From: Clostridia bacterium | GTDB lineage: Bacteria; Bacillota; Clostridia; TANB77; CAG-465 | Direction: 5' to 3' | NCBI GenBank assembly: GCA_028686615.1 | Contig: JAQUBQ010000001.1 | Location: 142 to 64,141, forward strand | Length of the DNA stretch: 64,000 nt | Shown: positions 1-41,300 of the stretch, one piece after another | Layout: the number at the start of each line of letters is the position of its first letter | Numbering within the stretch: the stretch's first letter is position 1 | Translations under genes and position numbers: made by a program | Notes under the pieces: model-generated | What the model was told of the DNA's origin: nothing | What the model saw: the letters and a program-made list of their open reading frames with translations, nothing else | Databases searched by the model: none

Positions 1-123
1 TATTGTATCTATTTTACCATTGGTAATATTAGCAGTATCTAAATAATTAATATAATTTTTATCATAATTTTGGCTAATATTCTTTTTATTAATATCAGTT
101 ATTTCTTTTATTTTTACTATCAT
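1..123 (-). CDS. Partial second hsdS-like gene. It starts with ATG at 123 and runs off the left edge of the window.
   Basis: Reverse-complement translation from 123 gives MIVKIKEITDINKKNISQNYDKNYINYLDTANITNGKIDTI. The (I/V)KxxEI ... Y(I/L)xxxNIxxGKI pattern is typical of an HsdS target-recognition domain N-terminus. It begins 5 nt after the recombinase stop, on the same strand. Confidence 0.45.
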   Translation of the reverse strand, partial: MIVKIKEITDINKKNISQNYDKNYINYLDTANITNGKIDTI

Positions 124-127
124 ATTC

Positions 128-1129
128 TTAACCTATATACTTTCTATGTGATATTTTTACATTATTTTGATTTACCATTGCATAATGCATTGTTGTTTCT
201 ATTTTTACATGTCCTAGCAGTTTTTGGACTTGTTCTATTGGCATTCCTTTATCTATAGCTACTGTTGCTAATGTCCTTCTGAATTTATGAGGGTGTACTC
301 TACTAATATTTGTAGATAGTCCTAATTTTCTTACTATTAATTCAATTCCTGATATTGAAAGTCTTTGATGAGGTTTGTTTTGTGAAACAAATAATGCAAT
401 ATTATTATCGTTTCTTGAATTCAAATATTGTAATAAATGAATTTTTGTTCTTGCATCAAAATAAACTTCTCTTTGCTTATTTCCCTTTCCTAAAACTATA
501 CATGAACGTTCTTCAATATTCAAATCTTTTTTATCTAAATTTACTAACTCTCCTACTCTAATGCCTGTAGAATAAAGCAGTTCTATTACTGCAAGATTTC
601 TAACATTTAAGCACTCATCTCTCATTTTTTCTATATTCTCATCTGTAAAAGTTTCTTTTATTATCGTAGCTGTTTTTATCTTATGAACTCTTCTGACTGG
701 ATTTTTAATAATATAATCTTCTTCTTCCAGCCATGAAAAAAAACTTGAAAATACTCTTCTAATATTATCTACCGTTGTTGAATTACATTTTCCATTATCC
801 TTATATTTTGATAAATAATTTCTTATATCTTCTGTTGTTATTCTCTTTAACGGTTTGTCTATGCTTACTAGCATCTTTTCTATTATTTCTTTATAATACT
901 TTATTGTCCTTTTTGAACAACCTTCTATTTCTTTAGCTGAAATAAAAGCATTTTTATAATTATCATTTATTGTTTTTTCTTCTATTTTTTTTAATTCATC
1001 TGATATAGCAGTAACCTCAACATCTTCAAAATTTCTGATTAAAACATTTTTTAATGCTTCAAGTTGATTATTTGTTAATATTAATGCCATTTCTTGTGTT
1101 ACATTCATTATTACATCATTTTTTACCAT
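128..1129 (-). CDS. Tyrosine site-specific recombinase (XerC/XerD-like phage-integrase family), likely the recombinase of an hsdS shufflon
   Basis: C-terminal catalytic region HPHKFRRTLATVAIDKGMPIEQVQKLLGHVKIETTMHYAMV, with the R...HxxR...Y catalytic signature. It sits between hsdS and a second hsdS-like start. Confidence 0.9.
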   Translation of the reverse strand: MVKNDVIMNVTQEMALILTNNQLEALKNVLIRNFEDVEVTAISDELKKIEEKTINDNYKNAFISAKEIEGCSKRTIKYYKEIIEKMLVSIDKPLKRITTEDIRNYLSKYKDNGKCNSTTVDNIRRVFSSFFSWLEEEDYIIKNPVRRVHKIKTATIIKETFTDENIEKMRDECLNVRNLAVIELLYSTGIRVGELVNLDKKDLNIEERSCIVLGKGNKQREVYFDARTKIHLLQYLNSRNDNNIALFVSQNKPHQRLSISGIELIVRKLGLSTNISRVHPHKFRRTLATVAIDKGMPIEQVQKLLGHVKIETTMHYAMVNQNNVKISHRKYIG

Positions 1130-1194
1130 ATAATATTACTCCTTTCTATGCCAAGTAATATTATATAATATCAAGCAAATAACTATTTGTATGA

Positions 1195-2400
1195 CTAAAT
1201 TTCTATTTTATTTAAGTCTATTTTTCCATTCATTAGTTTTGGTAATAATGTATCCCTTAATTGTGTCAAAGTATTATTCTGCTTATTGTTAATATAAATT
1301 TTTTCAATAATAATTTTCACTTCATTGGTAAAATCAATCATAAATTCACTAGGAGGCAATTTAAATTTGTATTTTTTAAAATCTGCCATTCTAATTCCTT
1401 TTTGTACACTTCCACTTGCTAAACTTACAGAATATTTCTGCATATCAGAACTTAATAATAATAAATACAAAAATTCAGACGATATAAGTTCATTTGGTCT
1501 TATAGTAAATACAGATTCGCTAACATTCCAATTAGTTGGTGTTTCATCTATTAAATACACTCTTCCGATTGTGCCTATACCTGAAAATAGTAAATCTCCT
1601 TTTTGTAAATCAGACCTCTTATTTATTTTAATTATGGCTTCATCATCAACCTTATCGCATTTATCATCTAATATGACTTGATTATTTTGCATATTCTTAA
1701 TTGTTACATAATAATTACTACCTTGCCCTAATACGAAATTTTTTCTTGGATTAAGACCTGTTGCAAATTTAGATGTTGCTTCATCTAATGTTATATCTTT
1801 CCATTTAATTATATCATTATTGTTAAGATATAACTCCTTATAAAGTCTTTTTAATATATTGTACAAATTATCATTTATCTGATTATTAATTTCTATTTTT
1901 TCATCAATATATTTTAAAACATTTACAATTTTATCTTGTTCTTCTTTATCAGGCAAATCAATAATAATATCACTAAACAAAGTTTTACTTAAAATAGGCA
2001 TAGTAGAACCACCTGCAATGCTTTTTAAAAATTCTTTTTTTCCTTTAAAATAATAGTATAAATATTCAGGATTACAAAACAACTTTATATCTGTTATTGA
2101 ATTAATCTGTTGATTGGTTACAGTTTTTCTATCTATTAAATATACTTTACCCATATCAGATCCTATACAACTTACGCAGACACTACCACTTCCCAATATA
2201 ATTGACTTGAAATTATCTGTTACTCTTTTTGTCAAATATCTTTCTGTTTTTCTAATATATTTTTGTTCCTTTTTCATATCTTTTGGAGTTAAAAACATAT
2301 ATATATCTTCAAAGCAAGAAAAGTTTTCACTTCGTTTTGTTGAAGGTGTTTTACCTGTTACAATTCTTCCTATATCACCTAACCTATATTCCATACCCAA
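1195..2400 (-). CDS. hsdS: Type I restriction-modification specificity subunit HsdS, with two target-recognition domains
   Basis: 401 aa. N-terminus reads [13 protein letters not shown], and the TRD2 start reads [20 protein letters not shown]. It overlaps the hsdM stop by 17 nt, which indicates translational coupling. Confidence 0.9.
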
Positions 2401-3907
2401 TTGCTCCTAATACCTTCTTTATTTCTTCATCAAGTTTTCTTGATTCTTCAAATTGTTTCTTTAATTCACTTGTAAGAGTTGTCATTCTTTCTTCAAAAGA
2501 TACTCCATCATCTTCTACTTCTTCTGTTCCTACATATCTACCTGGTGTAAGTAAGCTATTACTTTCTTGTACTTCTTTTTTAGTAGATGATTTACAAAAT
2601 CCTAGTATATCCTCATAGTTTTCATTTTTTCTCCAATTATGATAAGTATCTGCTATTTTTTTAATATCTTCCTCTGATAAATCTCTTACTTTTCTATCTA
2701 CCATATATCCTAAATTTCTTGCATCAATAAATAATATTTTATTTTTTGTTTCTTCTGTTTTTTTCTTCCTCATTATCCATAAGCAACATGGTATTCCAGT
2801 TGCATAGAATAATTGACTAGGCATAGCAACTATACATTCCACTACATCTTTTTCTATCATATTTTTTCTTATCGTTCCTTCATTTGATGTGTCACTAGAA
2901 AGGGAACCATTGGCAAGAACTGTTCCTGCAACTCCTGTTTGCGGGTTTAGATGGTGCAACATGTGTTGTAACCAAGCATAGTTTGCATTTCCTGTAGGTG
3001 GTACTCCGTATTTCCAACGAAGGTCATCTTTTAATCTGTCACCGCCCCAATCTGATATATTAAATGGTGGATTTGCTAATATATAATCTGCTTTAAGAGT
3101 TTTGTGCAAATCATTATGAAATGCATCAGCATTATGCATTCCTAGATTTCCATCTATTCTTCTTATAGCTAAATTCATTTTAGCAAGCTTCCAAGTTGTT
3201 GGGTTTAATTCTTGTCCATATATAGAGACATTTCTAATATTTCCTTGATGTTCCTTTATAAATTTAGTTGATTGTACAAACATTCCTCCAGAACCGCAGC
3301 ATGGATCATATACCCTACCATTATATGGTTCAATCATTTCGACTAATGTTCTAACTATGCACGCCGGAGTATAAAACTCCCCTCCACCTTTTCCTTCAGC
3401 TGAAGCAAATTTGCTTAAGAAGTATTCATATACCCTACCAAGCATGTCCATTTCTTTTGCTTTATCTGTTCCTATTTCTAAATTAGAAAACAGTGTCACT
3501 AGTTCCCCTAGTCTTGTCTTATCAAGTTCAGGTCTTGAATAGTTTTTATTAAGAACTCCTTTTAAAGATGTATTCTCTTTTTCAATAGTCTCCATTGCTA
3601 AGTCAATTATTTTTCCTATTTCTGCTGTATTCGCATGTTTCTTTATTTCGTTCCACCTTGCAATTTTAGGGACCCAAAAAATGTTATCCGATGAATATTC
3701 ATCTTTATCTTCTGGATCTGCTAAATCTTCATTTAAAAGATTATTATATTTTTCTTCAAATGCATCAGATACATACTTTAAAAATATAAGTCCTAAAGCT
3801 ACATGTTTGTATTCTGAAGAATCCATACTTCCTCTTAATTTATCTGCTGCAAGCCATAATTTATCTTCATAACCCAATGTTGTGTTATTATTTATTTTTG
3901 CCATCAT
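2384..3907 (-). CDS. hsdM: Type I restriction-modification DNA methyltransferase subunit HsdM (N6-adenine)
   Basis: 507 aa. Carries the NPPF motif ([13 protein letters not shown]) and an AdoMet-binding region ([12 protein letters not shown]). The N-terminal HsdM_N helix region reads [15 protein letters not shown]. Confidence 0.95.
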
Positions 3908-4233: not shown

Positions 4234-4927
4234 TTGGACCAACAAAAACTCATAATACAATATGTGAATTTATCTAGAGCTACAAATGAAACATTACTTG
4301 CGTTATATACCGGAATGAGAGTTGGTGAAATTATTTCACTATATGTATCAGATATAGACTTTAAAAACAAAACAATAAATGTTAATAAAAACTGTTCCAA
4401 TTATACAGACTTTGATGCAGAGTTCAGAAGTAAAAACAAACAAGAAATATCCAAGACTAAGACTAATTCATCCACTAGGATAATACCATTTATATCTAAT
4501 AAAGTTGAAGAAGTATTAAGAGATCAATTAGAAGTGATTGAATATAATAAAAAAGTTTGGTAAATGTTACAAAAAGAATTCTCAATTACTATTTGCAAAT
4601 GAAAAAGGTAAACTTAAATCTACATCCACTGTTTCAACATGTTTCAATAGACTATGTGAAGTTATAAATGAAATTAAAAACAAAAATATTAAACCTACAA
4701 ATAAAAAATATATTAAAGTATTTAATAAACATAATTTCCATATGATTAGACATACATTTGCTACTAGATGTTTAGAAGCAGGAATGAATATAAAAGTTGT
4801 TTCTAAATTATTAGGTCACTCAAAAATACAATTAACCCTAGATATTTACTCTCATGTACTTGAACAATTTCAAGATGAGGAAATATCTAAGGTTACAGAT
4901 TATTTTAAGGATAAGGAGCTGTTTTAG
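4234..4927 (+). pseudogene. Tyrosine recombinase remnant. It is 5'-truncated and split into two overlapping ORFs by a frameshift.
   Basis: ORF 4234..4563 begins mid-domain at LLALYTGMRVGEIISL (the box I arginine region). ORF 4538..4927 carries HMIRHTFATRCLEAGMNIKVVSKLLGHSKIQLTLDIYSHV. No N-terminal core-binding domain is present. The first ORF opens with a TTG, not a credible start. Confidence 0.7.
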
Positions 4928-4949
4928 AACAGCTCCTTTGTGTATATAT

Positions 4950-7211
4950 TTATAATTTTTTTACATCATCATATATGTTTTTTAACTCTATTATATCCAT
5001 ATCTAAAATTGGTTCATACATAAAAGAATTTAAATGAATATTCTCTGGGGTTACAATATTAACTTTCTCTAGTACTTTAATCTTATCTATCGAACCAATT
5101 TGTATATAACCATTAAAAAGTTCCCTTGTTTGTTTATCACATAAACTTACATGTTGCATTAATAATGTATTATTTCCTGTAACAATACTATTATCTTTAC
5201 TCCAAGAAAATATTTTATTTACATCTTTATTAATTTCTTCAATCATAAACTTTTCTGCTGTCAATCTTGTTGCAATAGCTAAAATAATTTTATTTTCTAA
5301 ATATAAATTAGTAATATTTATGGTGTTAGCTTCAGCAAGTATTTTATCAAAAACTATATCAGTATCTACAACATTTATAAAATTGCTGTTACCAATGTAT
5401 TCATTATATATTATTTTTAGCATTCCAAAAGTCAGCTTATCTGTATGTTCTTTGACATGAAGTAGATTAGTCAAGAACATATAGTCCTCATCTATTAAAG
5501 TATAATTATTTACTCCTTTATCAACTCCATATTCTATTAAATTTCTAACAAAAGGGAGCAAGGCTATTATATATTTTATATTAAGATTTTTTTTCCAAAA
5601 TTGAAACGGTTGTTTTTGATATTTTTCTTTATCCAAACTTATTATGCCGTTAGTTATATTAGCATTTAATCTTTTATCTCTTGGAATAAAAATCCTTGTT
5701 GATATTGTTCTGTAGAAATCGAAATTATGTGATAATATTATTAAATAAAAGTTGTTGTATTTAGACATTTCATATAAATATTCTACTATAGCATATTTAT
5801 TCTTATAATCAAATGAATCAGCAATGTCATCTATAATAAATAATGTTCTCTGATTATCGATTTTTCTTTTTTCAACATCAAAAATTATATTAAGTAAATA
5901 TAAAGCCCTTTTTTCACCTTGACTTAGCACATCCTTGTTTTCTAATTCATCCCTGTCAAATTCAACCCAATTTTCAGGATCTAAATTTTCTTTGTTTCCG
6001 TCCTTACAAAAACTAAAAATAATTTTAGGTAAACTTTCTCCTATTATTGAACTTTTTAAGTTTACTATCTTCATTTTATATGGTACAGTAAATCTTTTTT
6101 CAAATATTTCTAATGCTCTTTTCCAAGGTGTTTCATCAAAATTTATTTCATCTATCTTTTTTTCCAAACTTTCATATTCTTTTTTTAATTCTTCAAATTT
6201 TTTTTCTTCTAACTTAATATATGAAAGCCACAATTGTAATCTTAATTCATTAAGATTATCTATCAAAAGCATCTCTACAATAGATGGGTTGTTCTCTATT
6301 ATATCTTTAAGTACTATTCCTTTTGCATCACTTAATGATTTTTCAATTTCCTTAAGTTCAGGTAAATCTTTTAATAAATCATCAATTTCTTTAAGTTTAT
6401 CAGAGATTTGTTTGATATTTGTTATCTCCATATCCCCAGCCAATATGATTTTATTATCTTTTACAAAATAATTATTTTTTTCTAAGTCTTTTGATATCTC
6501 TTTTAATTTTGGTAATGTAAATCTTCCTTTATCCAAAAAGTTAAAATCATTATACATTTCATCACTTTTTTTGATAAATTCTTTAATGTTTTTTTGAAAT
6601 GTTTCAGATTTAATCTTTTTTAAAACTGCTTCATCAAATATACTTGAATACTTAATGTCTTTTAGATTATCTGCTAACTTTGTTAAATCAAATTTTTTTA
6701 AGTTTAACAAAAAACTGCTATCATCACATTTAAAATCTTTAATTAGCGTGTTCTCCATTTCGTAAACTTTTTTACCTTGTGAAGTTTTTTGAACCTTCAG
6801 TCCTGATTGCTTTTCTAATAACTTAAGAAAATTGTTTCTTAAATTTAAAACACTGTTTATGGATTTTTTCAAGTCACTATTAATCAATAGAGAAGCTATA
6901 TTGTCAGATTCATATGAGTTTTCAAAAGATTTAATTACAAAAATATCATCACAAGATATATTACTATTATCAACTTCTACTTTTAAGATATTTGGAGTTT
7001 TATTAAATATTTCATCTTTAACTTCACTAGATTTACCATCTTGAATCATTTTAAAAGTTTTGGCAAAAGATGTCTTCATGAGACCATTTCTAGCATAAAC
7101 TGCATATACTTTTCCTGTACTAAAATCAAACTCTTTTTCTAATTTATTTATACCATAACAATTTTCAAATTCTAATTTTATATTTTTCATAACTTCCCCC
7201 TTAATATACAT
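4950..7211 (-). CDS. PrrC/RloC-like (AAA_13-type) ABC ATPase with a long coiled-coil insert and an uncharacterised roughly 250-aa C-terminal domain. Candidate anticodon-nuclease or abortive-infection partner of the Type I RM system.
   Basis: N-terminus IKLEFENCYGINKLEKEFDFSTGKVYAVYARNGLMKTSFAKTF parallels the PrrC/RloC N-terminus, but the P-loop is degenerate (NGLMKTS where NGSGKTS is expected). There is a K/E-rich coiled-coil of about 250 aa. The ABC signature is LSQGEKRALYLL and the Walker B is LFIIDDIADSFD. No HEPN Rx4-6H motif was seen in the C-terminal domain. Confidence 0.5.
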   Translation of the reverse strand: MYIKGEVMKNIKLEFENCYGINKLEKEFDFSTGKVYAVYARNGLMKTSFAKTFKMIQDGKSSEVKDEIFNKTPNILKVEVDNSNISCDDIFVIKSFENSYESDNIASLLINSDLKKSINSVLNLRNNFLKLLEKQSGLKVQKTSQGKKVYEMENTLIKDFKCDDSSFLLNLKKFDLTKLADNLKDIKYSSIFDEAVLKKIKSETFQKNIKEFIKKSDEMYNDFNFLDKGRFTLPKLKEISKDLEKNNYFVKDNKIILAGDMEITNIKQISDKLKEIDDLLKDLPELKEIEKSLSDAKGIVLKDIIENNPSIVEMLLIDNLNELRLQLWLSYIKLEEKKFEELKKEYESLEKKIDEINFDETPWKRALEIFEKRFTVPYKMKIVNLKSSIIGESLPKIIFSFCKDGNKENLDPENWVEFDRDELENKDVLSQGEKRALYLLNIIFDVEKRKIDNQRTLFIIDDIADSFDYKNKYAIVEYLYEMSKYNNFYLIILSHNFDFYRTISTRIFIPRDKRLNANITNGIISLDKEKYQKQPFQFWKKNLNIKYIIALLPFVRNLIEYGVDKGVNNYTLIDEDYMFLTNLLHVKEHTDKLTFGMLKIIYNEYIGNSNFINVVDTDIVFDKILAEANTINITNLYLENKIILAIATRLTAEKFMIEEINKDVNKIFSWSKDNSIVTGNNTLLMQHVSLCDKQTRELFNGYIQIGSIDKIKVLEKVNIVTPENIHLNSFMYEPILDMDIIELKNIYDDVKKL

Positions 7212-7445
7212 AAATTATATCACCTTCACCGACAACATTCTTTAGCGAATGCCGTCTAGTTTTGTCGAAATAATAAAATACACCCTATATTTTAATTATA
7301 GAGTGTATTATCTATTCAATTTATCATATAGCAAATCTTGTTGTTACCGGCTGCAGTCAATTTGCAGTCATTGCCTCTTTACTAACCTGCAACCACTGAT
7401 ACATCTAAGCTTGTCAATCTTGTACATACTTTCCTTGTAGTTTTA

Positions 7446-8849
7446 TTATTTTATATTTAATTTTATTCTATTGTATTCCCAGTTTTGAGAAACTTCAGCT
7501 TCTGATAATGCACTGCTGTATAAAGCAAAGTTATATATTGTTCCTGTGTATTTTAATCCTCTACCAAGTCTTAAATCCCCTAATGTTAAGTATTTATATT
7601 GTATTTTTTTACTTCCTGAGTTGAAGGTTTTTACTAAGCTTCCATTTAAATATACTTTTGTATCTTCCCCTCTTCTTCCTACAACTTGTATATTTAAGTA
7701 TTTGTTTTCATATTCTTGAATTGCAATACTTGCAAAGCCCTCTTCTTCGTATTCATAATCTATTTTTAAAAGAGCTCCTCCAGTTTTATAACTATATACA
7801 TGTAAATATCCATATACTATTCCAATCCAATTCAAGTAAACTGCTGATTCTTCAGATAATGCACATAATGTTGCTGGGTAATCTTCCCAACGTTCAGATA
7901 CACCTTTTTGGTTTACAGTTCCTTTAATTGTTAAGTTTATACCATATGTATCTCCTACTGGTTGCATTTCTTGATTCACAGTAATTCTTCCTACTTTTGA
8001 AGCGTTAGAAAGTTGTAATCCTCTATACATGTTATTCTCATAGGTTACATCATTATCCCCTTCCAAACTTTCCAATATTTCGAATTCTCCAAATTGAGTC
8101 AATGTTCTTGGCGAATCAAATGTAACTCCTGTCACTAAGTTATCAAGCACTAATTCAACTTCTTCATCTTGTTCTTGATATTGATTTACAAAATGAATAG
8201 GTACTTCTCCATCCATTATTCCTTGAATGCTCATAACCATACCTGAATTATAATTTACTATATATGGAGCATACTTAGCATTTATTATTCCAATGGATGA
8301 TAAATGATTTTCATCTAAGTAATGCCATCTACTTCCATAAGAAATTCCACGTATTTCTACATTATCAGGATGTGCAGTACCACCAATTTTATCTCCAACT
8401 AATGGTTTTTTTTGTTCTTTAATTTCTAAAACCTTATTTTCAATATTAAGGTTTTCTTTATTAAAGTCATACAGTTCTCTTTTAATAAGGATATATCCTA
8501 ACTTTTCAATATTTTCCTCTTTACTGGTAATATTATCATAGATATATATTAGTTTGTTGCTTAAATAAGCTACATTGTTAAATTCCTTTTCTTGTAGACT
8601 AGGAATTACTTTTTTTATTTCATCCTTTTCAATATATAGTGGATTATCCCTATCATCATTTAACAGCTTTTTAGCTTTGCTATACTCGAATTCTTCCTTA
8701 TATGTAGCAAACTCTGTCATTATTTTCGCTTTACTTGCTTTCCCTATAACTCCACTAGATTGTAAAGTCAAAATAATTGCTCCTGCTAGTATTATCATTA
8801 CTATTATTGTTATTACTAATACTACTAACGATACTCCTTTGTTTTTCAT
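7446..8849 (-). CDS. Type-IV-pilin-like N-terminal segment fused to a LamG/concanavalin-A-like lectin domain protein
   Basis: The likely start is the internal ATG at 8849 (MKNKGVSLVVLVITIIVMIILAGAIILTL), which has an AGAGGT RBS. The track ORF extends to 8879. The C-terminus reads GDLRLGRGLKYTGTIYNFALYSSALSEAEVSQNW, typical of a Laminin_G_3 domain end. Confidence 0.6.
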   Translation of the reverse strand: MKNKGVSLVVLVITIIVMIILAGAIILTLQSSGVIGKASKAKIMTEFATYKEEFEYSKAKKLLNDDRDNPLYIEKDEIKKVIPSLQEKEFNNVAYLSNKLIYIYDNITSKEENIEKLGYILIKRELYDFNKENLNIENKVLEIKEQKKPLVGDKIGGTAHPDNVEIRGISYGSRWHYLDENHLSSIGIINAKYAPYIVNYNSGMVMSIQGIMDGEVPIHFVNQYQEQDEEVELVLDNLVTGVTFDSPRTLTQFGEFEILESLEGDNDVTYENNMYRGLQLSNASKVGRITVNQEMQPVGDTYGINLTIKGTVNQKGVSERWEDYPATLCALSEESAVYLNWIGIVYGYLHVYSYKTGGALLKIDYEYEEEGFASIAIQEYENKYLNIQVVGRRGEDTKVYLNGSLVKTFNSGSKKIQYKYLTLGDLRLGRGLKYTGTIYNFALYSSALSEAEVSQNWEYNRIKLNIK

Positions 8850-8882
8850 TTTTATTACCTCTTTTTTATATGCATACATTTA

Positions 8883-10553
8883 TTATCTACTAAAGCTTCC
8901 ATCTCCTATAAATTCTCTAAGTAATGAATTAATAGGTATTTCTTTTGTTTCAACTGGTAAGAAGTTGCTTAAAAACTCATAAAGTCTTCTTGCTTCAGAG
9001 AAATATTTACTTGTATTTTTAACTTGTAATAATAATGGTTCTGCAAATGTTCTTATAACTCCCATCTCATATATTAAACTACTATTAAATATGTAATCTG
9101 CACTATCTGTAAATGGATATATATTTTTCTCTTCTCCTTTACGTATTTTTTCCCACATTTCTAATGTTTCTTCAACTTTTACACTCCTTGTTGCATAATC
9201 TCTTACTATTCTTCTAAGCATTCTAGTATCAGTAGATGAAACCTTTGTATATGAATCCAAATTTAATGTTGTAATCGGTGCCATATATATTTTAAATTTG
9301 TATTTTGCTTCTACTTGTTTTGTCATTTCATCATTTAAAGCATGAATTCCTTCAACAAGCATTATATCTTTTTTCTCTAATTTTAATTTTTTATCAGAAT
9401 ATGATTTTGAACCTTTACCAAAATCATATCTTGGAATGTTTACAGACTCTCCACTTGTAAGTTTTTTCATATGATCATTAAACAATTCTATATCTAATGA
9501 ATTCACTGACTCATAATCATATTCCCCTGTCTCTTTATTGTAATTTTCTTTTCTTTCCCTATAGTAATTATCCATTGATATTATAATTGGATTGTATCCT
9601 ATTAGTTTTAAATTATCCCCTAGTTTTTGAGCAAAGGTTGTTTTACCTGAAGAAGATGGTCCTGCAATTAGTAGCATCTTTATTTCTTCTTTTTCTTCTA
9701 TTTTTTGTGTAAGCTTTAGTATTTGTTTTTCATGCAATATTTCACTTGTACGTATAATTGTTCCTATATCTTTATTTATAACTTTATCATTTAGCTGTCT
9801 TACAGATTCAACATTTATTTTTGTATTATATTCTTCAAATTCTTCATAAATATCATATAATTTATTTTTAGTAATTTCTTTTGGCATTACATTTATATTA
9901 TCCCTGTTTGGTGCTACAAGTACAAAACCTTTTCTATATGGTTTGATATCGAATCCTTTTATAAATCCTGTCCTTGGTGCTAGAACCCCACTCATATGAT
10001 TTGCAACTGTTTCACAGAAGAATAACGTTACGTATGATTTAAGCTCACTACCCATCATATTTATATAATCTTTGTTTTGCATAGTTTCGTATATAATTTT
10101 TGCTTCCTCAGATGGAACAGCTCTTCTTACAATTTGGCTATTTCTATCAATTATATTTTGCATTTCTTCTCTAATATTATTTGCCATCTCTTCTGTAAAT
10201 GCTTCTTTACATATAAAATAGCTATCATTATTCATATTATTACTGTACTCAACTTTGTATTTAGGATATAGCTTACAAAGAGCCATATATAATATGAATC
10301 TTAGTGTTCTATTATATATCCTGTATCCATCATTACTGTTATATGTTACATGTTCAAGCTTAGTATCAGTTACAATTTCATAATCTAGTGTTCTTACTTC
10401 ATTATTCACTCTTACTGCCATAATTTCTGATATTTTACTAGGGTATTCTGCTTGTTCTATAATTTCGTCTACCTTCGTTTTATAATTTACTACAAGTTCC
10501 CTAGAACCTTCTAATGTCACTTTTATTTTTTTTGCATATAGTTTGTCTAACAT
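8883..10553 (-). CDS. Uridine-kinase/phosphoribulokinase-family P-loop kinase fused to an N-terminal ThrRS/AlaRS-like TGS/SAD domain (putative nucleoside kinase)
   Basis: Walker A LLIAGPSSSGKTTFAQKLGD followed by ISMDNYYRE is uridine-kinase-like. The N-terminal roughly 280 aa begin with a TGS-like segment (KIKVTLEGSRELVV). Confidence 0.55.
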   Translation of the reverse strand: MLDKLYAKKIKVTLEGSRELVVNYKTKVDEIIEQAEYPSKISEIMAVRVNNEVRTLDYEIVTDTKLEHVTYNSNDGYRIYNRTLRFILYMALCKLYPKYKVEYSNNMNNDSYFICKEAFTEEMANNIREEMQNIIDRNSQIVRRAVPSEEAKIIYETMQNKDYINMMGSELKSYVTLFFCETVANHMSGVLAPRTGFIKGFDIKPYRKGFVLVAPNRDNINVMPKEITKNKLYDIYEEFEEYNTKINVESVRQLNDKVINKDIGTIIRTSEILHEKQILKLTQKIEEKEEIKMLLIAGPSSSGKTTFAQKLGDNLKLIGYNPIIISMDNYYRERKENYNKETGEYDYESVNSLDIELFNDHMKKLTSGESVNIPRYDFGKGSKSYSDKKLKLEKKDIMLVEGIHALNDEMTKQVEAKYKFKIYMAPITTLNLDSYTKVSSTDTRMLRRIVRDYATRSVKVEETLEMWEKIRKGEEKNIYPFTDSADYIFNSSLIYEMGVIRTFAEPLLLQVKNTSKYFSEARRLYEFLSNFLPVETKEIPINSLLREFIGDGSFSR

Positions 10554-10738: not shown

Positions 10739-11941
10739 TTACTTTATATAAGCTACAATTCGAAGTCCCTTATTATCACCCGCAACATAAGGAAGACTGT
10801 AAAGTGAGCGAGAACTTACAGGAGCGATTGAACCTCTAGAAGCATAAGCTCCGCCAAAACCGACACGTCCATTCCAACTGTAAGCCTCCATAGTCCATTC
10901 ATACACATTTCCTGCCAAATCATATATGTTTTTCTTTTGATAAGTGGCTTCTGAACCTGTTACTTTAAGTCCACCTCCACCAAGATAGTTCCCATACTCA
11001 GAACTATCTTTTACATTTATTCCACTAGCTTTATACCATCTCATTACTGCATCCCATTGCACTCCATAAATCAAATGACTTACTACTCCTCTTGTGTTTT
11101 GACTATTATCTGGATATAAGCTTCTTGCTACCTTTACTGCTCCATTTGCATTATCATCTCCTGCAAACCAATCATATGCTGTATCATCTTGTGTCCCACC
11201 CCATGGAATATAGTTCCACACAGCTATCCCTTGTCTTATTCGTGGTTTCTTTGTTCCATCTGCATCATTTATTGTTGTTTCTGTTGGTGCCTGCATCCCT
11301 TCAGCTATTCCTGCTTCATATCTTCCTATATAAAATCCTTTATACTTCTCTACACTTGCATACATCTTTTCTACTTCTCTATCTTTTCCTGTTTCAGGAG
11401 TTATTTCGTATAAATCATTTTTCGGAGCTTGATCATTCCTAAAATCATATCTTATAAATTCATTAATATTTTCTACTGGTACCCATACAAATTGATTTCC
11501 TTTCAAGCCTTCTGCTATATTATGTGATGTTCCTTGTCCCTCATCCTCGATATTATCCGATATTATTAAACCTTCTTCTACTGTTCCCCCTACATGGTAA
11601 AAGCCTTCTGGAATTATTGATTTAATATCATATACTGTCCCTTTTTCTGTTACGTTATATTCACTTTTTTTAAATCCCGCTTCACTTAATCTGTTTTCAA
11701 TATATTTTATTAAAGTTATTTCTTCTTTTTCAGCATCTGACATAAGTTCATACTCTGCTCTTGCAAGTACAGCTACTTGTTTGGCGTTTGCCTTATCGCT
11801 TTTCATTTTTGCTTCTTCTGCCCTAGCTATAATTCCACTACTATTTAATGATAATATTATTGCCCCTGCTAAGATTATCATTACTATTATTGTAATGACA
11901 AGTACTATTAATGATATTCCTTTTCTTTTATTTGTTTTCAT
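10739..11941 (-). CDS. Pilin-like N-terminal segment fused to an FGE-sulfatase (SUMF1) fold domain protein, paralog 1
   Basis: N-terminus MKTNKRKGISLIVLVITIIVMIILAGAIILSL with a GGAGGG RBS. FGE-fold motifs FYIGRYEAG, IYDLAGNVYEWT, RGS and a terminal GLRIVAYIK are present. The catalytic Cys pair is absent. Confidence 0.7.
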   Translation of the reverse strand: MKTNKRKGISLIVLVITIIVMIILAGAIILSLNSSGIIARAEEAKMKSDKANAKQVAVLARAEYELMSDAEKEEITLIKYIENRLSEAGFKKSEYNVTEKGTVYDIKSIIPEGFYHVGGTVEEGLIISDNIEDEGQGTSHNIAEGLKGNQFVWVPVENINEFIRYDFRNDQAPKNDLYEITPETGKDREVEKMYASVEKYKGFYIGRYEAGIAEGMQAPTETTINDADGTKKPRIRQGIAVWNYIPWGGTQDDTAYDWFAGDDNANGAVKVARSLYPDNSQNTRGVVSHLIYGVQWDAVMRWYKASGINVKDSSEYGNYLGGGGLKVTGSEATYQKKNIYDLAGNVYEWTMEAYSWNGRVGFGGAYASRGSIAPVSSRSLYSLPYVAGDNKGLRIVAYIK

Positions 11942-13405: not shown

Positions 13406-14620
13406 TTATTTTATATATGCTATAATTCTAAATCCAATAGTGCCATGTTCAAGTGAAGGAGAATATGCATGACGAGCAGATACTGCACCATCAATACTAC
13501 TGCTTACACAACCTCCTCCGCGAACAGCACGAGTATAAATATCCTTCGTCTCCATTGTCCATTCTTCTATATTTCCTGCCAAATCATATATGTTCTTCTT
13601 TTGATAAGTTTCTTCTGATCCTGTTACTTTTAATCCTGGTCCTCCAGCATAATTTCCCATTCCTGTGCTATCTTGCACATTTATTCCACATTCTTTATAC
13701 CATCTCATTATTGCATCCCAATTTACTCCATATATTAATGTAGATACTACTCCTGTTGTATTTGTGCTATCATCTGGATACATGCTTCTTGCTGCTTTTA
13801 CTGCCCCATTTGAGTTATCATTTCCTGGTCCTCCTTCATATGATGATGTATTACTAAATGTTCCTCCCCACGCAATATAGTTCCATACATATAGCCCCCT
13901 TTTTATTCTCGGAATGTTTTGTCCATTTGCCAAGGATGTTGTTGAAGCTGTTGGCTTTGTCATTCCATCTGCTATTCCTGCTTCATATCTTCCTACATAA
14001 AACCCATTATGCTTTTTTATACTTGCATACATTTTGTCTATTTCTTTTGTTCTACCTTTTACTGATCCAATTTCAAAGTATTTACCTGTTCCTCTTGATG
14101 TTGCTGTAAATTGTGCTATTATTAAATGAAAATCATATCTTACAAATTCACTAAATTTTTCTACTGGTACCCATACAAACTGATTTCCCTGTAATGTTGT
14201 TAAATGAGATGTTCCTTTCCCCTCATCATATATGTTATCTGATATTACTAACCCTTCATCAACTGTACCTCCAACATGGTAAAAACCTTTTGGAATTACA
14301 GGTATTGTATATACCTTTCCTGTTTCAGTTATTTCATATTTACCTTCTTTTATTCCAACTTCTTTTAATTTGTCCTCTGCATGTTTCTTAAATGTTTTAC
14401 CTTCCTTCTCTTCATCTGATAATAAATTATATTCTGCTCTTGCTAATGTTACGACTTGTTGTACATTTGCTTTATTAACATTTTTTACTGCTGTATTTGC
14501 ATTTTCTATAACATTGCTACTGCTTAATGATAATATTATTGTTCCTGCTAGTATTATCATTACTATTATTGTGATGACAAGTACTATTAAGCTTATTCCT
14601 TGTTTGCCTTTTGCTTCCAT
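13406..14620 (-). CDS. Pilin-like N-terminal segment fused to an FGE-sulfatase fold domain protein, paralog 2
   Basis: N-terminus MEAKGKQGISLIVLVITIIVMIILAGTIILSL. Motifs FYVGRYEAG, IYDLAGNIEEWT, RGGGC and a terminal GFRIIAYIK are present. It is similar along its whole length to paralogs 1 and 3. Confidence 0.7.
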   Translation of the reverse strand: MEAKGKQGISLIVLVITIIVMIILAGTIILSLSSSNVIENANTAVKNVNKANVQQVVTLARAEYNLLSDEEKEGKTFKKHAEDKLKEVGIKEGKYEITETGKVYTIPVIPKGFYHVGGTVDEGLVISDNIYDEGKGTSHLTTLQGNQFVWVPVEKFSEFVRYDFHLIIAQFTATSRGTGKYFEIGSVKGRTKEIDKMYASIKKHNGFYVGRYEAGIADGMTKPTASTTSLANGQNIPRIKRGLYVWNYIAWGGTFSNTSSYEGGPGNDNSNGAVKAARSMYPDDSTNTTGVVSTLIYGVNWDAIMRWYKECGINVQDSTGMGNYAGGPGLKVTGSEETYQKKNIYDLAGNIEEWTMETKDIYTRAVRGGGCVSSSIDGAVSARHAYSPSLEHGTIGFRIIAYIK

Positions 14621-38309: not shown

Positions 38310-41300
38310 TTATTCCTCCTTGTTTGGACTAATAATAAAATTTGCTTTTATTAAATAACTAAAATATTTTTTAATATAGTTCTCGTCCAATTTCTCCCAT
38401 CTGAACTTTAAATTATTTAAATATCTTTTTGTTATATCTGATTTTACTATTATATTTGAAGTATACTTTATTTCTTGATTCCTATCTAAGTCTATTATAA
38501 TTCCTGTAATATTTTTATTTTTTTGTTCTATTAACTTATGTAATTTGTTTTTAAATTCAAGTTCTGTTACTTCTTCTATTTTAATATTTAATTCTTTTAT
38601 AATTTGTAGCAATTCTCTCATATATATATGATTGTCATTAAATATATGTAAAATTCTATAATCACAATTATCATATAATGCTCTGACAATTATGTCTGCT
38701 GCTTGATCAATAGGGCTCATTTCAATATATACATCTTTAAATTTATTTGGTATCATCTCAAGTTCTACAAAAGCCTTAATTCTATTTACAAATGCATTTT
38801 CTTCTATGTTAGGTTGGAATTTTCCATCTGTATATCTTCCTGTTAAATTCCCCATTCTCATTATTGTCAAGTTAAGGCCTTCCTCACATAATTTTAAAAG
38901 TTCTACCTCTGCAATGTATTTACTATATACATATCCATTGTATAATTTTTGTTCAATAAACAATTCATTTTCACTATAATTAACTTTTTCTTCAAACTTT
39001 TGTTCTATCTGACCAGTCTCTAACATATTTCCGCATACACTTAATGTAGATACATGATATAAATGCATTTTATTTTTAATACATAATTTTGCTAGATTAA
39101 TAGCTACTTTTACGTTCATTTTTAGAAATAAATCTCTTTCTGCAAAGTGTTTTACAACAGCAGCGGAGTTTATTACACTTCCTATATTATTAATGTTTTC
39201 CACTTTACTAAATATGGTTTCTTCTAATATGTCCCCCTCAATCACTATAATTCTTGTGCCAAAAAAACCTTCATACTTGTTTTTAAAAAAGAATTTCATT
39301 CTTTCTTTTAACCTTGTTTCTCCAGTAATACCGTTTTTAGCCCTTACAATACAATAAATCTTTCTGCTTTTTGAGGTATCTACCATATTGGAAAGAATAT
39401 GCGCTCCTAAAAAACCAGTTGCACCTGTAAGTAATACATCTTCTTTATTATTGTTTTTTTTATTTTTATTTTTTATTGCATTATTTATTTTATCATAATT
39501 ATAATTTGATATATTATACATTTCATCTAACTGATTTGGTAATTTGTTTGACAATTTTCTAATTGTTCTATAATTATACAAGTCAGCATAGGTATAACTA
39601 TATTGTTTCTGTGAAGACTTCATAACAAATTCAGTAGCAAGTATTGAATCTCCACCAATATCAAAAAAATCATCGTCTATCCCAAACTCTTCTTTTTTTA
39701 ACAGACTCTTCCAGATAGAAAAAAGACTTTTTTCTAGTTCTGTTTCAGCTTTAGATTTTTCTTTCTTTTTAGTTATTTTAATGTTTTTTAACGCACCTAT
39801 ATCTACTTTTCCGTTTATGTTTAAAGGAATTTCTTCTAAAAACACTATAACTTCAGGCACCATATAATTTGGCAAATCTTTTTTAAGTTTATTTTTGATA
39901 TCCTCTTCCTTATATTTAAACGTATCATCCTTTAAAATAAATGAATTTATTCTTTTCTTTTCATTATCAAAAATCACATACGCATCTTTTATTCCTTCTA
40001 TTTTTATAATATTATTTTTAATTTCTTCAAGTTCAATTCTATAACCTCTAATTTTTATTTGGTTATCTATTCTGCCTCTATATAAAAGGTTCATATCGTG
40101 ATTTAGTTTTACTAAGTCTCCTGTTTTATATACCATATATTTAGAATTTTCATCGTTTAAAAATAGTTTTTTTATAAGTTTTTCATTATTAACATAACCT
40201 TTACCTAACCCATACCCCCCTACTACTAATTCTCCGATTGCATTCATTGGTAATATTTTATTGCATTTATCATATACATAACAAATACTATTACTAATTG
40301 GTTTTCCTATTGGAACTTCTTTACTAATATCTTTATGGTTTTTCAATGTATATGTAGTAGATATGACAGCATTTTCTGTAGGTCCATATGCATTTATCAA
40401 ACAAGTGTTTTTACATTTATCTAAAACTCTTTTACCAGCTTCAACGGGAAATACTTCTCCTCCTGTTATTAAATATTTTATATTTTTAAACACTTCTGGT
40501 TTGTACATTGCAAACTTGTTAAAAACAGATGTTGTTAAAAGCATAACATTAATATTATTATTATTTATATAATCTTCGAAACTCTCTGGGTTTAGTAATG
40601 TCTCTTTATTTATTACATGAAGACTTGCACCATTTAAAATAGCTGACCATAATTCGAATACAGATGCATCGAAAGCAATAGTACCTGATAACAATACTTT
40701 ATCTTCTGGTAATATATTAATGTAATTTGTATTTTTCACCAATCTTACTACTCCCCCATGAGAGTTCATAGTTCCTTTAGGAAATCCAGTTGTTCCAGAT
40801 GTATACATTATATATGCTAAATCATTTTTTGTAACTTTAATGTTTATCTCTGCATCACTACTAGTAGCAAACACTTCTGAATTTCTATTTACTGATATAT
40901 ATTCAATATTAAAATCCTTGTTAATATTTGTATTGTTAATTATTTTTTCTTTTGAAAGTATAATTTTAGCATTACTATCTTTTAGCATGTATTTAATTCT
41001 ATTTTTAGGTAGCTCATAATCTATTGGTATATAATTCCCTCCTACCTTTAATACTGCAATTATTGAGACAATAAGTTCTTCTGTCTTATCAAGCATTATT
41101 GCTATTGTATCCTTTTTAGTAATACCTTTTTGTAATAATACATTAGCCAGCTGATTAGATTTTTTATCTAATTGTAAATATGTAAGTACCCTATCCTTGT
41201 ATATAACAGCTTTTTGATAGGGATATTTTTTAACATTTTCTCTAAATGTTTCTAATATATTATCAAACTCAAGAGTACTCTCTTCTTCGTTCATTTTAGT

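Follow-up and report, generated by a model that had tools for sequence, protein, structure and literature searches.

In a 64,000-nucleotide stretch of contig JAQUBQ010000001.1 from a Clostridia bacterium (assembly GCA_028686615.1), hereafter called the window, a minus-strand gene beside Type I restriction-modification (RM) genes was identified by its sequence as an intact member of PDC-S46, a large family that is already catalogued as a candidate in PADLOC. The encoded protein consists of an ABC ATPase head with a non-canonical P-loop, a mostly helical insert that splits this head and an all-alpha C-terminal domain. Its homologues lie in neighbourhoods that are mobile and rich in RM genes, and no gene accompanies them as a fixed partner. 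On balance, and with moderate confidence, we regard it as a stand-alone, horizontally mobile defence-island protein, in which a PrrC/AAA_13-like but family-specific ABC nucleoside triphosphatase (NTPase) switch would control a fused C-terminal effector as a second layer beside RM. The role in defence, the switching by nucleotide and all of the effector chemistry are what we infer by analogy to PrrC, RloC, OLD, GajA of Gabija, AriA of PARIS and PtuA of Septu.

Family membership and distribution

The open reading frame (ORF) at 4950-7211 was verified as real and encodes 753 residues. Translation probably starts at its second ATG, at 7190, because a ribosome-binding site precedes this codon and because the PADLOC profile and the database protein P0001 both begin there. 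P0001, a 'hypothetical protein' of 746 amino acid residues, is 100% identical to the window protein, and residue numbers follow it throughout.

4950..7190, minus strand: coding sequence of the PDC-S46-family protein, 746 residues plus stop; the longest ORF reaches 7211
7193..7202, minus strand: Shine-Dalgarno-like AAGGGGGAAG, read from the sequence, 5 nt upstream of the start codon at 7190

The match to the PADLOC profile of PDC-S46 (PDLC05023) ran from end to end, with ORF residues 8-753 on profile positions 1-718/719 (E 2.5e-203, 675.7 bits). PDC-S46 is a phage defence candidate (PDC) that was proposed by bioinformatic prediction (Payne et al., bioRxiv 10.1101/2024.01.29.577857). The other profile scans of the window protein yielded a weak mad8 match in PADLOC, transporter noise only in NCBIfam and a score of 27.5 bits for SMC_N (PF02463) in Pfam, below the cut-off of 40. 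A kinship with AAA_13 (PF13166), suggested by the first-pass annotation of this DNA, held for part of the family only. The window protein itself did not match this profile at E<=0.1 (gathering threshold, 36 bits), but six of 45 close homologues passed it (33.8-44.2 bits, profile positions 285-616 of 713). SMC_N was sub-threshold in 44 of the 45. Judged by these profile scores, the family sits at the edge of AAA_13. A sequence search of the PDB with a profile of the 45 sequences returned only an Smc4 fragment (E 0.24).

More than 6500 homologue clusters at 90% identity passed E 1e-5. Among the species genomes that were scanned, relatives are encoded in at least 527, which belong to Bacillota, Bacteroidota, Pseudomonadota, Patescibacteria/Saccharibacteria, Cyanobacteria, Spirochaetota, Verrucomicrobiota and others. 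Homologues were also found on 29 plasmids and one phage-like contig. The latter, MT836015.1, is an unannotated 'Bacteriophage sp.' contig of 13.9 kb that came from human faeces; it encodes a full-length homologue of 31% identity at 7346-9520 and was the sole match among 50,697 phage records. Three homologues on Rhizobium plasmids (CP140800.1, CP140829.1 and NZ_CP098804.1; 32-34% identity) carry the annotation 'phage infection protein'.

The ABC ATPase head and its insert

AlphaFold modelled the full-length protein from 45 homologues with a pLDDT score (predicted local distance difference test) of 83.7, and the model contained an N-lobe, a helical insert and a C-lobe. The domains and motifs of the protein are as follows.

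6900..7190, minus strand: ABC ATPase N-lobe, residues 1-97, with beta strands, the Walker A helix and the SFENSYES strand region (AlphaFold2 secondary structure and conservation)
7068..7097, minus strand: deviant Walker A, Y32-A-R-N-G-L-M38-K39-T40-S41, with Met at the position of the canonical second Gly
6093..6899, minus strand: mostly helical insert of about 270 residues between the ATPase lobes, residues 98-366 (AlphaFold2 model)
5619..6092, minus strand: ABC ATPase C-lobe, residues 367-524, with the signature, Walker B/D-loop, H-loop and terminal beta strands
5907-5927, minus strand: ABC signature LSQGEKR, in the C-lobe
5805-5843, minus strand: Walker B and D-loop LFIIDDIADSFDY, in the C-lobe
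5715-5735, minus strand: H-loop LSHNFDF, in the C-lobe
4953..5618, minus strand: all-alpha C-terminal domain, residues 525-746, the presumed effector; family-specific, with a confident model and no relatives
5532-5546, minus strand: R549, N550 and E553, invariant
5457-5459, minus strand: H578, invariant
5010-5051, minus strand: invariant block T714-P-E-x-I-H719-x-N-S-F-M-Y-E-P727, which in the window protein is T714-P-E-N-I-H719-L-N-S-F-M-Y-E-P727

Five motifs were read directly in the sequence: NIKLEFENCYGI, VYARNGLMKTSFAKTF, LSQGEKR, FIIDDIADSFD and SHNFDF. The signature, the Walker B and the NGLMKTS Walker A given by the first-pass annotation were all present. So was its N-terminal motif NIKLEFENCYGI, although its spacing had been given off by one residue. 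The H-loop SHNFDF and the earlier cataloguing of the family in PADLOC were absent from that annotation. In Foldseek searches of the PDB, the full model matched the heads of SMC, cohesin, condensin, Rad50, AriA of PARIS (8v45) and the retron-IA ATPase/PtuA (9n6b), with E values of 2e-6 to 1e-3.

Among 76 homologues that were 34-57% identical to the window protein, 90 positions were at least 95% conserved. With so many positions conserved across so many diverged homologues, the motifs lie far beyond chance. In the P-loop, Y32, N35, G36, K39 and S41 were invariant or nearly so and A33 was nearly invariant, while position 40 was Thr in 72 homologues and Ser in four, and position 38 was Met in 72 and Leu in four. 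The same preference was found among 89 full-length representatives of 50%-identity clusters from many phyla, in which position 38 was Met in 78, Phe in two, Leu in one and Gly in none. The other eight representatives were N-terminally truncated, offset or had Trp for Gly36, and the five of them that showed the loop read MK[TS]S. No GxxxxGK[ST] motif was found anywhere in the window protein by regular expression. The rest of the composite site was also invariant (L422-S-x-G-E426, D454-D455-I-A-D-S-F-D-Y and H488-N-F-D-F), and S423, G425, E426, D454, D455, D458-Y462 and H488 were found in all 76 homologues. Because the Met variant is family-wide and the remainder of the composite ABC site is invariant, the P-loop is not decaying; its deviation is a fixed trait of the family. 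The first-pass annotation had described this P-loop as degenerate and had suggested that the domain might act purely as a regulator. The loop is deviant but conserved, and a purely regulatory head is unlikely given that both the variant and all of the catalytic ABC motifs are invariant.

Two further observations concern the head. Four family representatives (P0132, P0139, P0150 and P0168) read NW.MKTS, with Trp at the otherwise invariant Gly36. We attributed this Trp to genomes of candidate phyla in which TGA is recoded (code 25 or code 4) and which were translated with the wrong table, an idea that fits the contig matches in Absconditabacterales and Patescibacteria. In addition, DDIADSFDYKNKYAIxEYL (residues 454-472 of P0001, window positions ~5775-5831) was almost wholly invariant across phyla, beyond what Walker B and the D-loop need. 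This conservation suggests an additional interface on the helix that follows the D-loop.

The insert was modelled as many short helices, the longest of 25 residues, with a few strands, and part of it aligned to AAA_13 profile positions 285-490 in some homologues. The coiled coil of about 250 residues that had been proposed for this region is thus real as a helical region, but not as a two-armed coiled coil. No CxxC was found anywhere in the window protein by regular expression, and C11 was the sole cysteine conserved in the family; because of these two findings, a zinc hook of the RloC/Rad50 type is lacking. Long arms or a hinge of the SMC type were also lacking in the AlphaFold model. Membership in SMC, RecN or RecF was rejected on this basis together with the sub-threshold SMC_N score, and the confident SMC or RecN match by which the first-pass annotation would have been refuted did not appear.

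The C-terminal domain

The C-terminal domain of about 220 residues was modelled alone from 30 sequences with a pLDDT of 90.2 and a predicted template modelling score of 0.87, and had 11 helices and one small hairpin. Searched alone, it matched the PDC-S46 profile at 1.2e-60. It contained more than 20 invariant polar residues, which include, in addition to R549, N550, E553 and H578, the residues D569, T574, K580, E632, K634, R642, E646, T688 and D730. Only one loop of the model has low confidence, and the invariant block T714-P727 lies in it. The domain is called an effector here because invariant polar residues are dense in it despite an overall identity of about 35%, a pattern that speaks for a site of catalysis or of tightly constrained binding. 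When 1.84 billion cluster representatives were searched with a profile of this domain, 1176 proteins were identified. Among the best 150 of them, the domain was C-terminal in a protein of about 720-760 residues with the same architecture, or the matches were fragments.

The first-pass annotation had also noted an uncharacterised C-terminal domain with neither an Rx4-6H motif nor CxxC, and searches by regular expression, Pfam and Foldseek bore this out. The regular expression found no Rx4-6H anywhere in the window protein, no HEPN profile matched in Pfam or PADLOC and Foldseek found no HEPN structure for the C-terminal domain. A canonical HEPN nuclease was therefore ruled out.

Comparison with PrrC, RloC and other ABC-ATPase defence proteins

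The sequence of EcoPrrC was recovered from supplementary Fig. 12 of PMC11555353, and its motifs are IYAFNGTGKT, LSKGEE, FIDDPVSSLD and TTHSPIFYN (PMC11555353). Similar to PrrC, the PDC-S46 protein combines an ABC NTPase and a C-terminal domain in one polypeptide, and the two proteins share the motif forms AxNGxxKT, LSxGE, hhDDxxxS[LF]D and [ST]HxxxF-Y. The PrrC-like ATPase head of the first-pass annotation was hence upheld, with five motifs in the form found in EcoPrrC apart from the change of Gly to Met. Moreover, some PDC-S46 relatives are embedded between hsdS and hsdR. Different from PrrC, which has about 396 residues, the window protein has 746 and carries the 270-residue insert that PrrC lacks, and Met replaces the P-loop Gly before Lys. 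Furthermore, the linkage of PDC-S46 is not restricted to Type I systems.

Membership in the PrrC family, which the first-pass annotation had suggested together with RloC, was not supported. The window protein did not match the PADLOC PrrC model at E<=0.1, whereas true PrrC homologues, used as a positive control, matched this model (PDLC02360) at 3.4e-147 and 2.1e-146. BLASTP aligned only 37 residues with EcoPrrC, at Walker A (E 0.007). Walker A was also the only significant region when PDC-S46 was aligned with PrrC by hhalign (probability 37%, E 3.5e-4; with a more diverse alignment, 71%, E 3.8e-5). For the C-terminal domain, hhalign against the PrrC alignment gave nothing (probability 0.2-0.3%), a weak negative, as the profiles were shallow with an effective number of sequences of 2-3.8.

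An unlikely reading, which we treat as a lead, is that the protein nevertheless descends from the PrrC/RloC lineage and is a genuine anticodon nuclease that has diverged strongly. Its C-terminal domain would start with an anticodon nuclease core of the PrrC type, with R549, E553 and H578 as the triad, and the protein would cleave tRNA when the neighbouring RM system is inhibited. The triad implicated by experiment in PrrC is Arg320-Glu324-His356 (PMC1484252) and sits in LLRNLYEK ... FTSHS, and the order is kept in PDC-S46 by the invariant FVRNLIEY ... LLHxK. The intervals are also alike, with 61 residues from the H-loop His to the Arg in PDC-S46 versus 69 in PrrC, and 29 versus 36 from the Arg to the His. 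In a permissive hhalign path, RNLIE fell on RNLYE and was collinear with the ABC signature, Walker B and the H-loop, but this path was non-significant (probability 0.45%, E 0.13). The shared form of the ABC motifs, including AxNGxxKT and DD, also fits this reading. AAA_13 covers the triad region in PrrC, to profile position 668, and the matches of the PDC-S46 homologues stop just short of it, at about 616. Against these points, not only do the PADLOC PrrC model and the C-terminal hhalign comparison fail to connect the two proteins, but the Rx6H of PrrC (RIINFTSH) also has no counterpart in PDC-S46. The weak match of the PrrC C-domain to the HEPN protein ApeA is likewise missing from the PDC-S46 domain, and the size and 11 helices of the latter come without a HEPN structure in Foldseek. 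In addition, a second RxxxE string in the C-terminal domain, R642...E646, shows that such strings arise easily.

Two PrrC homologues (P0270 and P0336) matched several PADLOC PDC-S06 models, which are profiles of about 730-850 residues, via the Walker B/H-loop region, and PDC-S06 may be an RloC-like relative of PrrC. PDC-S46 showed neither the PDC-S06 nor the ApeA link.

Similar to RloC, the PDC-S46 protein belongs to a comparable size class and has an ABC head that is split by a long helical insert and followed by a C-terminal domain. RloC is, moreover, often not embedded in an RM operon (PMC3458546). Different from RloC, PDC-S46 lacks the CxxC zinc hook, the model shows no long coiled coil in its insert, and neither Pfam nor Foldseek detected a HEPN or anticodon nuclease signature. 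Identity with RloC was rejected for want of the zinc hook. The logic of a sensor ATPase with an effector is common to PDC-S46 and to AriA of PARIS, PtuA of Septu and retron Ec78, GajA and OLD, and the head fold matches those of AriA and the retron-IA ATPase. The effectors of those proteins, however, are of the Toprim or HNH kind or are proteins of their own, whereas the candidate effector of PDC-S46 is a fused all-alpha domain, and they also differ from it in that the PDC-S46 Walker A is non-canonical. Compared with PDC-S46 as described in PADLOC, a single-gene system in or beside RM, BREX or DISARM loci, the window protein showed no structural difference, and its single-gene organisation and RM-linked neighbourhoods agree.

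The locus and the neighbourhoods of homologues

The genes and elements around the PDC-S46 gene in the window are listed below.

7277..7309, minus strand: terminator-like hairpin between the upstream gene and the PDC-S46 gene
4234..4927, plus strand: tyrosine-recombinase (integrase) pseudogene, frameshifted and N-terminally truncated, between the PDC-S46 gene and hsdM
2384..3907, minus strand: hsdM, Type I methyltransferase, downstream of the PDC-S46 gene on the same strand
1195..2400, minus strand: hsdS, Type I specificity subunit, after hsdM on the same strand
128..1129, minus strand: intact tyrosine recombinase, downstream of hsdS

The hairpin suggests that the PDC-S46 gene is a separate transcription unit. 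The gene upstream of it is pilin-like/LamG, and the other upstream genes are housekeeping or unrelated ones (uridine-kinase-like, YchF and pseudouridine synthase). The pseudogene fills the 1-kb gap between the PDC-S46 gene and hsdM, and it matches Phage_integrase profile positions 26-85 and 90-170 in two frames. It is convergent with the 3' end of the PDC-S46 gene, and an inverted repeat (~4913-4938) lies between both stop codons.

A second contig of this genome encodes an identical protein and shows the complete locus, in the order PDC-S46 gene, dead integrase, hsdM, hsdS, recombinase, two half-hsdS cassettes, two small ORFs and hsdR (1005 residues). The adjoining Type I locus (hsdM-hsdS-recombinase-hsdS'-hsdS''-hsdR) is therefore complete, and the PDC-S46 gene lies directly upstream of it, outside the operon. 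This Type I locus (window 1-3907; L081:4001-12644) looks phase-variable. Its recombinase at 128-1129 weakly matched MrpR_C_cat, and the half-length hsdS cassettes share with the full hsdS direct repeats of 108-120 nt (71-80% identity) and an exact 23-mer. The window contig ends right after the recombinase, which is probably an assembly break at the hsdS repeats.

The neighbours in 79 homologous loci were clustered all against all, and the adjacent genes were scanned against Pfam. The clustering found no recurrent partner gene in these loci. Within two genes of the homologue, the following were found.

Type III mod: 15 of 79 loci
dcm: 8 of 79 loci
hsdM: 5 of 79 loci
hsdR: 4 of 79 loci
Type III res: 4 of 79 loci

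Adjacent genes also included DpnII, NgoPII, Eco57I, Vsr, Mrr, GmrSD and nSTAND3. A PrrC-like order, hsdM-(hsdS)-X-hsdR, where X is the homologue, was found in about five of the 79 loci, and other recurrent settings were SNF2-DUF4391-X-mod-res and the conjugative-element cargo topoisomerase III-dcm-X-giant protein. An RM gene of Type I, II or III was directly adjacent in about a third to a half of the loci, and RM genes of every type are strongly enriched beside the homologues. Because Type II and Type III neighbours are at least as common as Type I and many loci have no adjacent RM gene, the linkage is to RM and defence islands in general and not to Type I in particular. Of the link to Type I RM drawn by the first-pass annotation, the adjoining hsdM and hsdS and the association of the family with RM stand, but a link peculiar to Type I does not; in the window, the gene lies outside the hsd operon.

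The same neighbourhoods are also compatible with a somewhat less probable reading than that of a diverged anticodon nuclease, in which the protein would have no effector role in immunity and would instead be an accessory that serves mobile elements or DNA methylation, such as an SMC-like DNA-handling or repair ATPase or a methyltransferase regulator carried on integrative and conjugative elements (ICEs), plasmids and RM cassettes. Several homologues lie in conjugative-element backbones between topoisomerase III/dcm and a giant protein of 2000-2700 residues, others are near plasmid rep genes, and methyltransferases, not nucleases, are the commonest neighbours. Moreover, the closest folds of the head are those of SMC and Rad50. 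However, the protein has no long coiled coil, hinge or hook, and neither Mre11/SbcD nor a kleisin nor any other fixed partner accompanies it. Its gene is distributed patchily across phyla and in variable regions, as defence genes typically are, such genes are common in the cargo regions of ICEs, and the invariant polar C-terminal domain points to catalysis.

Proposed mechanism and the status of the head

For a defence-island protein with a fused effector, the reading that we favour, the mechanism could be as follows. Two heads would engage via nucleotide that is bound by the Walker A of the first and the LSQGE signature of its partner. An infection cue that the insert or the head perceives would alter the nucleotide state, and the changed state would free the C-terminal domain. 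As the effector, this domain, most plausibly a metal-independent nuclease acting on RNA, would halt the growth of the phage or stop the infected cell. The protein would in this way form a back-up layer beside RM systems.

Several observations weigh against this interpretation. Roughly half of the homologous loci have no RM gene beside the homologue, and in the window the dead integrase on the opposite strand parts the PDC-S46 gene from hsdM, so that the gene is not embedded. The C-terminal domain had no Pfam family at E<=1 and matched only PDC-S46 in PADLOC, and Foldseek searches with its model found no fold match, the best E value being 0.8 in the PDB (probability 0.07) and 0.34 in BFVD. Because no similarity to any nuclease or other enzyme was detectable, 'effector' and 'RNase' are putative terms for it. 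A literature search found no paper naming PDC-S46 and no experiment on it, and it was absent among the PDCs that were tested. Finally, in textbook P-loops, replacement of the Gly before Lys weakens nucleotide binding.

The last point leads to the view that the head is a pseudo-ATPase, in which the P-loop with Met for Gly no longer binds nucleotide and the head serves as a scaffold or regulatory module. We consider this quite improbable. Nearly all P-loop NTPases have a Gly just before the P-loop Lys, and the lack of GxxxxGK[ST] in the window protein would fit a loss of binding. When an ABC site degenerates, however, what normally disappears is the catalytic carboxylate, the H-loop His or the signature, all of which are invariant here across phyla. 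The substitute itself is fixed, as Met was found in 78 of the 81 representatives that could be scored, which indicates selection on the loop. Moreover, PrrC, which has the same AxNG context, binds and uses GTP and dTTP, not ATP (PMC1484252). An altered nucleotide preference of the PDC-S46 head would be a reasonable expectation by this analogy, and a simpler one than loss of binding.

That the protein serves an ABC or ECF transporter as its ATP-binding subunit is suggested by names that a few homologues carry in JGI/NCBI (EcfA2 and phosphonate transport ATPase) and by weak NCBIfam matches to ECF_ATPase_2 and modC over Walker B, but it is effectively refuted by their scores of 16 and 14 bits, far below the cut-offs of 330 and 285, by a head split by the 270-residue insert as in SMC, Rad50 and AAA_13, and by the lack of recurring permease or substrate-binding genes nearby.

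Other features of the window

Three minus-strand genes (7446-8879, 10739-11941 and 13406-14620) encode proteins of about 400-480 residues with a hydrophobic, pilin-like N-terminus and weak LamG/ConA-like or FGE-sulfatase-like C-terminal matches, and their products may be a family of secreted or pseudopilin-like proteins. Between these pilin-like genes, 8883-10553 encodes a uridine-kinase-like P-loop protein of 556 residues. A giant ORF of 2394 residues with a TTG start is found at 38310-45494 on the minus strand.

Implications

PDC-S46 is a large family, with more than 1000 clusters at 50% identity in hundreds of species and at least six phyla, including bacteria of the candidate phyla radiation, and had already been flagged by PADLOC in surveys of genomes. 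Our analysis adds its anatomy and a concrete list of residues for mutation. It also narrows the analogy to PrrC, in that the ATPase motifs have the same form, the effector is unproven and the linkage to RM is generic.

A bolder proposal, which we put forward as a speculation with the odds clearly against it, is that PDC-S46 joins PrrC and RloC as a third lineage of ribotoxins that are coupled to an ABC NTPase, and a very large one. In such a lineage, the invariant R549-N-L-x-E553...H578 would be a PrrC-type catalytic centre in a new and larger helical domain, and the P-loop, with its family-wide Met in place of Gly, would adjust the head to a nucleotide that is not ATP, just as PrrC reads GTP and dTTP. 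If this were true, the protein would sense infection-induced changes of the nucleotide pool or the failure of RM, whatever type of RM system adjoins it.

The general design of the protein is unsurprising to a specialist. Its fixed non-canonical P-loop and its confidently modelled domain without a known relative nevertheless make it a good experimental target. If the C-terminal domain is a nuclease or another toxin, it would represent a new effector fold in the ABC-ATPase defence superfamily.

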